Part shown: piece after piece, positions 2,703 through 2,859 of the stretch
Layout: every line of letters begins with the position of its first letter
How positions within the stretch are numbered: the first letter of the stretch is position 1
Source: a virus
Lineage: Duplodnaviria; Heunggongvirae; Uroviricota; Caudoviricetes
Virus record (IMG/VR): IMGVR_UViG_2548876934_000003
Length of the DNA stretch: 11,426 bases
Reading direction: 5' to 3' (one strand)
Notes under the pieces: model-generated
Told to the model about the DNA's origin: nothing
Database searches by the model: none
The model's input: the letters and a program-made list of their open reading frames with translations, nothing else
Position numbers and translations under genes: made by a program

Positions 2703-2859
2703 CTGTTCCCTCCCTGTGCGGCATGGTCGCATGTGCGTGCGGAGGGGGTTACTGCTTTTTGTTGTCGCCGGGTCGGGAGAACGGCGCAGGGGTGAGATTA
2801 CGCGCGTGGTGGGTGATGATTGTTGCCGAATCATTTTACGGATACAAGGGGCTGAAGCT

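Follow-up and report, generated by a model that had tools for sequence, protein, structure and literature searches.

How do two tail genes come to be expressed late in infection when they are transcribed away from each other, across a short gap which lacks the textbook element of P2-type late promoters? That is the question raised by genes D and FI of the DNA considered here, which in its entirety, 11,426 nucleotides, is described as the window. A preliminary description had reported that the D-FI gap contains no exact copy of TGT-N12-ACA, i.e., the dyad associated with Ogr-type activators, and suggested that either the native FI promoter was lost at an inversion breakpoint or the lineage uses instead a variant site. 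The answer which we favour belongs with the second of these suggestions. That is, the D-FI gap probably acts in both directions as a late promoter of the P2 type that depends on an activator, with D and the FI operon both driven from one Ogr-type site.

The window is a P2-like prophage of the P88 type, which is to say genus Xuanwuvirus of family Peduoviridae. Its positions 1500-5200 are 99.9% identical to a prophage of Escherichia coli E2348/69 and 95-97% identical to phages P88 and P884B11 as well as to Citrobacter phage phiSM, with DNA resembling this same portion found in 1,424 of 5,426 complete E. coli genomes. The features relevant to what follows are these:

1-141, minus strand: hok, a Hok/Gef-family toxin gene at the prophage end (E2348/69 annotation)
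332-592, minus strand: gene for an Ogr/Delta-family zinc-finger late activator, 86 aa, intact (Pfam PF04606)
742-1431, minus strand: open reading frame of 229 aa, between D and ogr
1602-2702, minus strand: gene D, tail/baseplate hub protein, 366 aa (list of open reading frames; Pfam PF05954 Phage_GPD, E 2.4e-17)
2703-2859: divergent D-FI intergenic region, 157 bp, read here as a mirror-symmetric bidirectional late promoter
2860-4044, plus strand: FI, tail sheath gene, the first of an FI-FII-E-E'-T(-U) operon (Pfam Phage_sheath_1, Gp18_domIII_N and Phage_sheath_1C)
4044-4556, plus strand: FII, tube (open reading frames; E2348/69 annotation transferred by coordinates)
4612-4986, plus strand: E (open reading frames; E2348/69 annotation transferred by coordinates)
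up to 6144, plus strand: 5' part of the tape-measure gene, T, ended by a deletion junction at 6129-6144 (blastn)

D is transcribed leftwards, away from FI, its start codon being the reverse complement of 2700-2702, with the ATG of FI found at 2860. The extent given for the gap in the preliminary description, 2703-2859 or 157 bp, thus agrees with the open reading frames. FI and the sheath of P88-type phages share 97-100% identity.

Relative to the E2348/69 prophage the window carries three deletions, as seen with blastn, and consists of the collinear blocks 1-6144, 6129-7819, 7818-9918, and 10280-11426. A 16-bp overlap at 6129-6144 joins T to sequence found just past gene M. At 7818-7819, N is joined to the middle of P, with removal of O along with the P-O late promoter. 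The portal gene, lastly, is cut off and is followed by 361 bp (9919-10279) that are without match in the E2348/69 prophage, a segment which includes the 5' part of an HTH repressor-like gene. The window has lost most of T and U entirely, along with genes for the baseplate, fibre, and lysis functions, the scaffold gene O, and the DNA between P and O, and the element is no longer able to make phage. The exact arrangement of the window was not found among the complete E. coli genomes of the collection. The D-FI gap of the window is identical to the gap of the full-length E2348/69 prophage.

As to the motif itself, the preliminary description was right that no exact TGT-N12-ACA is present in 2703-2859. 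It was right as well that scanning one strand covers both, since the motif is self-complementary. There indeed are no matches in the whole of the 11.4-kb window, where 3.06 would be expected. This absence nevertheless is nearly uninformative, both because only about 0.04 matches are expected in 157 bp and because sites of phages P2 and 186 lack an exact match as well. The records of those two phages annotate the following activator sites:

P2 record, 3057-3087: activator site of PO/PP
P2 record, 10239-10266: activator site of PV
P2 record, 17555-17583: activator site of PF
186 record, 3798-3817: B site of pV/p12
186 record, 14091-14110: B site of pJ

None of these five contains an exact TGT-N12-ACA, and the exact matches that do exist in the two genomes fall elsewhere. 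Aligned in register, the PO/PP, PF, pV/p12, and pJ sites read GTTGT-N12-CCA and the PV site GTTGT-N12-CAA. TGT-N12-ACA therefore is a consensus rather than a requirement. Among the reference genomes scanned, an exact match coincides with a late promoter only in P4 (9133, 9493, and 9531), these being what we take to be PLL and Psid, and the textbook consensus thus fits the P4 sites better than it does those of the helper phages. For annotation this represents a caution, as a textbook scan for exact TGT-N12-ACA overlooks real P2 and 186 sites. The useful search instead is for GTTGT-N12-NNA, weighed together with position and conservation.

Read in this more permissive manner, the D-FI gap contains the following predicted elements:

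2723-2728, read as its reverse complement, minus strand: predicted P_D core, with the -10-like hexamer GACCAT and a TG one base upstream (2730-2731), the whole unit spanning 2723-2731
2761-2782, plus strand: predicted Ogr-type hyphenated dyad GTTGT-cgccgggtcggg-AGAAC, an exact match to that pattern, with its centre at 2771.5
2815-2820, plus strand: predicted P_FI -10-like hexamer GATGAT, found at +52 to +57 from the first base of the 18-mer

The core of the dyad is TGT-N12-AGA, at 2763-2780, its flanked form is tttGTTGT-N12-AGAACg, and in register the site reads tttgtTGT-cgccgggtcggg-AGAacgg. It is the only match inside the gap with at most one mismatch to TGT-N12-ACA, and it departs from consensus by as much as the P2 and 186 sites do. 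Its GTTGT half is placed distally with respect to FI, just as at P2 PF and 186 pJ. Scans by themselves nonetheless do not make the case. Over the window, TGT-N12-ACA with one mismatch allowed is found 56 times versus 51.8 expected, i.e., at chance frequency. A scan with a position weight matrix, proposed in the preliminary description and here built from eight P2, 186, and P4 sites of 24 nt each, does return the dyad as the best match in the gap, at 3.5 bits and rank 13 among 22,806 window positions, but 12% of shuffled gaps score as well. The true sites, when left out one at a time, score from 1.5 to 20.7 bits, and the spacer columns contribute noise to a matrix trained on so few sites. This result thus favours the gap site weakly. 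As the matrix discriminates weakly and the one-mismatch scan not at all, the case for the site rests on comparative evidence. A degenerate but functional site, the finding which according to the preliminary description would count against its reading, accordingly was located by scanning so far as the site goes, at 2761-2782, with function being what is predicted of it. A second activator site, one specific to D, was also considered and was rejected, there being no other GTTGT-type element and no other positive matrix match in the gap.

The comparative evidence begins with an alignment of 23 distinct orthologous D-FI gaps, those of the window and of P88 included, which come from about 15 genera of Enterobacterales. 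GTTGT is invariant in all 23 and is preceded by a T-run, whereas the 12-bp spacer varies freely. The right half-site is AGA in most of these gaps, AGG in two, and ACA in three, with the canonical GTTGT-N12-ACAAC, a perfect 5-bp dyad, seen in Kluyvera, in Serratia phage KSP20, and in a Klebsiella prophage. The C-to-G difference that turns ACA into AGA would appear, as judged from these alignments, to be a lineage-typical variant of a canonical orthologous site and not decay. Searches of viral contigs with FI and gpO returned only relatives that are 98-100% identical, which serve for the study of polymorphism rather than of deep co-variation. Across 80 such near-identical relatives, 8 of the 12 spacer positions are polymorphic versus 0 of the 14 positions of TTTTTGTTGT plus AGAA, and the -10-like hexamer on the FI side is invariant as well. 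The D start codon column, which is CAT on the plus strand, is similarly invariant in the 23-sequence alignment, with the complement of a Shine-Dalgarno sequence before it.

Neither is the divergent arrangement of the two genes peculiar to the window. A search for relatives of FI, with one genome per species, found 57 loci. D is immediately upstream and divergent in all 22 of the loci whose FI is 69-97% identical, and is divergent also in Serratia phage KSP20 and in the Klebsiella prophage (FI approximately 68-69% identical). In total, that is, D is adjacent and divergent in 24 of 24 loci with FI at least 68% identical, as distributed over about 15 genera. The genera involved are Salmonella, Citrobacter, Edwardsiella, Enterobacter, Kosakonia, Symbiopectobacterium, Mixta, Pantoea, Erwinia, Izhakiella, Kluyvera, Trabulsiella, and Serratia, to which is added one contig, NZ_JBQPOM010000071.1, that bears the label Vagococcus sp., a Firmicute. 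This contig carries a 97-98% identical copy of this enterobacterial prophage region, probably as assembly contamination or mislabelling. The D-FI order of Xuanwuvirus is found as well in phiT5282H, of genus Novemvirus, and in ST16-OXA48phi5.4, of genus Reipivirus, with ogr located just past D.

Across this clade it is the FI-U block that is inverted as compared with P2, with the direction of D kept, and D therefore needs its own promoter within the D-FI gap. The junction was considered as a private inversion breakpoint, which was rejected given that the layout is clade-wide and found in three ICTV genera. P88 and phiSM, both of which possess the divergent layout, have been reported as active phages (PMC6456863). 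The suggestion that the native FI promoter was lost at the breakpoint thus finds no support, the layout being present at 24 of 24 loci, in three ICTV genera, and in active phages.

The same site, furthermore, recurs before the head genes. In the P-O gap of P88 is found tttgtTGT-aagaaaacggcc-AGAacag, the ten specified bases of which are those of the window site. GTTGT-N12-AGAAC occurs exactly three times in the 35.8 kb of P88, once in each of the P-O and FI-D gaps and once inside T, as compared with the roughly 0.07 chance occurrences which we estimate for ten fixed bases. Allowing a single mismatch raises the count to 8, versus 2.0 expected, and none of 100 shuffles reached 8. The right half-site, moreover, is the same at FI-D as at P-O in 8 of the 8 complete or partial genomes checked: AGAAC at both gaps in P88, phiSM, and Chuche; AGACC at both in phiT5282H, ST16-OXA48phi5.4, Kp4861-1, and Kp4845-1; and ACAAC at both in Klebsiella CP052639. 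Once the T-run is added to the pattern, the FI-D and P-O gaps are its sole matches in those genomes. This matching of half-sites ties the D-FI site to the regulator of the head-gene promoters. As the P-O gap is deleted from the window, it is from complete relatives that membership in a common regulon is seen. The alternative suggestion of the preliminary description, that the lineage uses a variant site, is therefore supported, the site being one mismatch away from consensus, in the expected place and orientation, with GTTGT invariant, and with recurrence at P-O. The third exact copy of GTTGT-N12-AGAAC, the one within T, is found in Xuanwuvirus (P88 28823-28844; E2348/69 17703-17724), is absent from phiT5282H and Reipivirus, and falls in that part of T which is deleted from the window. 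It may be a chance occurrence or instead an internal promoter.

What remains to be considered is how one site might serve two operons, and here it is spacing that is informative. With P2 PF, PO, PP, and PV, and with 186 pJ, a hexamer lies at +52 to +57 of the 18-mer, with mapped starts at +64 to +67. On the FI side of the window the predicted hexamer occupies this same position, and the stretch from site to hexamer is free of gaps in 23 of 23 orthologues, the hexamer being GATGAT in the window versus, among relatives, mostly GATTAT and occasionally a single-base variant of it. Read towards D, the other side has the layout of an extended -10, TGcGACCAT in the window, with TGaAATCAT, TGgGATCCT, TGgAATTAT, and TGaAACCAT among relatives. 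Despite this turnover of sequence, the dyad centre, 2771.5, stands 48.5 bp away from the outer hexamer edge in either direction in 20 of 23 lineages. Of the exceptions, two are off by 1 bp on the D side, and in one the pattern search took a different hexamer.

In P2, the PP and PO starts, 3016 and 3127, lie at plus or minus 55.5 from their common site centre of 3071.5, and in the 186 record p12 and pV, a divergent pair, likewise share one annotated B site. With transcription starting 7 nt past the hexamer, the geometry of the window equals that of P2 PP/PO. By analogy we infer that transcription of FI starts at about 2827-2830 and that of D at about 2713-2717, with the dyad at about -55.5 of both. 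These predicted starts are approximately 110-117 bp apart, versus approximately 111 bp for the P2 PP/PO type of design, with a single GTTGT-type site in the gap. The predicted leader of D would be only about 11-15 nt long, beginning at or just before the Shine-Dalgarno sequence. By geometry, in other words, and as read from sequence, the D-FI element has what can be checked of a putative shared bidirectional late promoter of the PP/PO type. A scan for sigma-70 consensus promoters and for terminators found none inside 2703-2859, where both -10-like hexamers are weak, and this lack of a consensus promoter fits with activator dependence.

The GC-rich strings which the preliminary description termed imperfect repeats do exist, at 2715-2726 and 2729-2743. 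A search of the gap for direct or inverted repeats finds none, however, with only the 6-mer TGTGCG present twice among these strings, and their interpretation as a repeat family was rejected for that reason. The stretch aligns instead with the conserved D promoter core of relatives. An alternating CG tract, CGCGCGCG, immediately precedes the TGn/-10 unit at the D promoter, and this tract is kept in several genera but has decayed to CGCACGCACA in the lineage of the window (2729-2743). A comparable tract is found upstream of the -10 of the P promoter (P88 14180-14195). These tracts could be mere GC-rich spacers, sites for another factor, or supercoiling-sensitive elements.

A candidate activator for the site is encoded in the window. 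The product of 332-592 matches Pfam PF04606, Ogr_Delta, with an E value of 5.1e-14 and 52.4 bits versus a cutoff of 26.3, and in E2348/69 the gene is annotated as 'ogr/Delta-like zinc finger family protein'. Aligned with P2 Ogr and 186 B, the protein keeps 4 of 4 cysteines at 31-34% identity, with the arrangement CX2CX24CX4C representing an insertion of 2 residues between the cysteine pairs. At 86 aa it is longer than Ogr and B, both 72 aa, and it has a C-terminal extension that is seen also in its Novemvirus and Reipivirus homologues and in that of the Klebsiella prophage. Every site-bearing genome checked encodes as well an Ogr_Delta protein adjoining D.

P2 Ogr contacts the alpha subunit of RNA polymerase (rpoA109). 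The mechanism proposed for the window is that the element's own Ogr/Delta protein (332-592) would bind the dyad at 2761-2782 and, so bound, would recruit RNA polymerase by way of the alpha subunit, as in P2 and 186. D would be switched on leftwards and FI-FII-E-E'-T rightwards, in both cases late in the lytic cycle. It is by analogy to those better-known phages that we ascribe to the window the binding of its Ogr homologue, the start sites, activation to either side, and contact with alpha.

The bidirectional reading has to be set against three others. The most pessimistic of these has the FI promoter lost with the FI-U inversion, leaving sheath and tube genes silent or fortuitously transcribed, and GTTGT-N12-AGA a product of chance. 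Considered in isolation, the window gives some encouragement to this idea, as it lacks an exact TGT-N12-ACA, has the one-mismatch six-base motif at chance frequency, has a score with the P2-trained matrix that is not significant alone, and, with its three deletions, is a decaying prophage. We nevertheless consider loss to be very improbable. An invariant site with fixed spacing is present in the gaps of inducible or active phages (P88 and phiSM) and over about 15 genera, the window gap is no different from that of the full-length E2348/69 prophage, the site is repeated at P-O with its right half matched within each genome, and polymorphism spares the half-sites. Comparably far-fetched, in our estimation, is that GTTGT-N12-AGA is bound by a host factor or some other phage regulator rather than by the Ogr homologue, with late control then being unlike that of P2. 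The modest identity of the homologue to Ogr and B along with the insertion in its zinc-binding region would be in line with such a departure, and the conserved alternating CG tract beside the -10 elements of both P_D and P_P hints at extra inputs. But the left half, the N12 spacing, and the distance to the -10 hexamer are identical to those of P2 and 186, the late operons which the element directly precedes are the same ones as in P2, and an Ogr_Delta gene is next to D in each site-bearing genome that was checked.

The main live rival, one which we view as unlikely if considerably less so than the two just described, is that the dyad activates FI only, as an orthologue of P2 PF, with D expressed from a separate, activator-independent extended -10 promoter, TGcGACCAT. 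A TGn element can substitute for a -35 element, and P_D with its extended -10 might fire without activator. That the TGn at P_D is conserved is consistent with such independence, as is the orientation of the site, given that the one-way promoters of P2 all have GTTGT distal and that here GTTGT is distal to FI. GACCAT and the very short predicted leader also set the D side apart from the FI side. An unlinked D promoter, however, would have no reason to hold its hexamer at the mirror distance of 48.5 bp, as it does in 20 of 23 lineages, and this fixed distance thus speaks against separation. In addition, it is the 'reverse' face of a common site from which P2 PP and 186 p12 operate, and D is required in step with the other tail proteins. 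One shared site is the reading favoured here.

So read, the D-FI promoter is closest in design to P2 PP/PO and 186 p12/pV. As in the window, each of these has one GTTGT-N12 dyad midway between divergent late operons, a weak -35, and a small C4 zinc-finger activator that is encoded next to D. A divergent promoter pair has been assigned one common site in Smp131 as well (PMC3931495), a case which the literature searched yielded alongside a secondary statement of the consensus. The differences are that the P2 and 186 sites serve P and O whereas the window site would serve D and FI, that in P2 and 186 D closes the F operon and has no promoter before it, versus D being split off in the window, and that the right half-site is AGAAC in the window versus CCA(T/A/G)C in P2 and 186. 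In terms of location the window site is instead like P2 PF and 186 pJ, which are upstream of the orthologous sheath gene, have GTTGT distal and the variable half proximal, and have the hexamer at +52 to +57 (GATGAT in the window versus GACAAT in 186 pJ). PF and pJ are one-way, though, with FI through D making up one operon, whereas D of the window is transcribed oppositely. The predicted FI leader in the window is about 30-33 nt versus 24-25 nt for PF and pJ, and outside of the site the window sequence is unrelated to theirs. The P-O promoter of P88 has tttGTTGT-N12-AGAAC (14214-14235), like the window, in the centre of a 154-bp gap, its dyad being nearer to a perfect palindrome (TGTTGT / AGAACA) than is that of the window. 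P4 Psid and PLL, which are Delta/Ogr sites, share their motif family with the window, with exact TGT-N12-ACA in P4 versus one mismatch in the window.

The proposed D-FI promoter is a modest extension of the PP/PO design, involving no new mechanism, and no description of it was found in the literature searched. Particularly, nothing was found there on the late promoters of P88-type phages, nor any binding, start-site, or expression data for the group. As to origin, we would put forward, tentatively and at somewhat less than even odds, that the FI-U inversion placed the dyad-symmetric PF activator site next to D, that in Xuanwuvirus, Novemvirus, Reipivirus, and many prophages this site then was put to use as a second bidirectional late promoter, mirror-symmetric like the first, and that the promoter-side half-site co-evolves with each phage's own Ogr-family protein. 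That co-evolution is suggested by half-sites (AGAAC, AGACC, ACAAC, CCA) which, genome by genome, are alike at both sites. If true, such natural half-site variants could help in reading the DNA-recognition code of this small zinc-finger family. The remnant itself keeps, for sheath, tube, and D, a seemingly complete activator-responsive control region as well as the activator gene, and late expression from it therefore is plausible.

Some further observations concern the neighbouring genes. The 742-1431 frame corresponds to a 221-aa hypothetical protein in the E2348/69 annotation, and comparison with Pfam matched it to no family. Other members of the group have different genes or none at this position between D and ogr, with nothing annotated there in P88 and with ogr directly after D in phiT5282H. 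The position looks like a cargo slot. An Rfam scan of the entire window returned no family at threshold, e.g., no Sok-type antisense RNA that might accompany hok. Labels in public records for this region also call for some care. In phiSM (OR565851.1, 2294-4745) the label 'ogr/Delta-like zinc finger' has been given to D and 'late control gene D protein' to the sheath gene, and RefSeq, for E2348/69 at 12103-12894, calls D as an N-terminally shortened protein of 263 aa where the full 366-aa frame is open.
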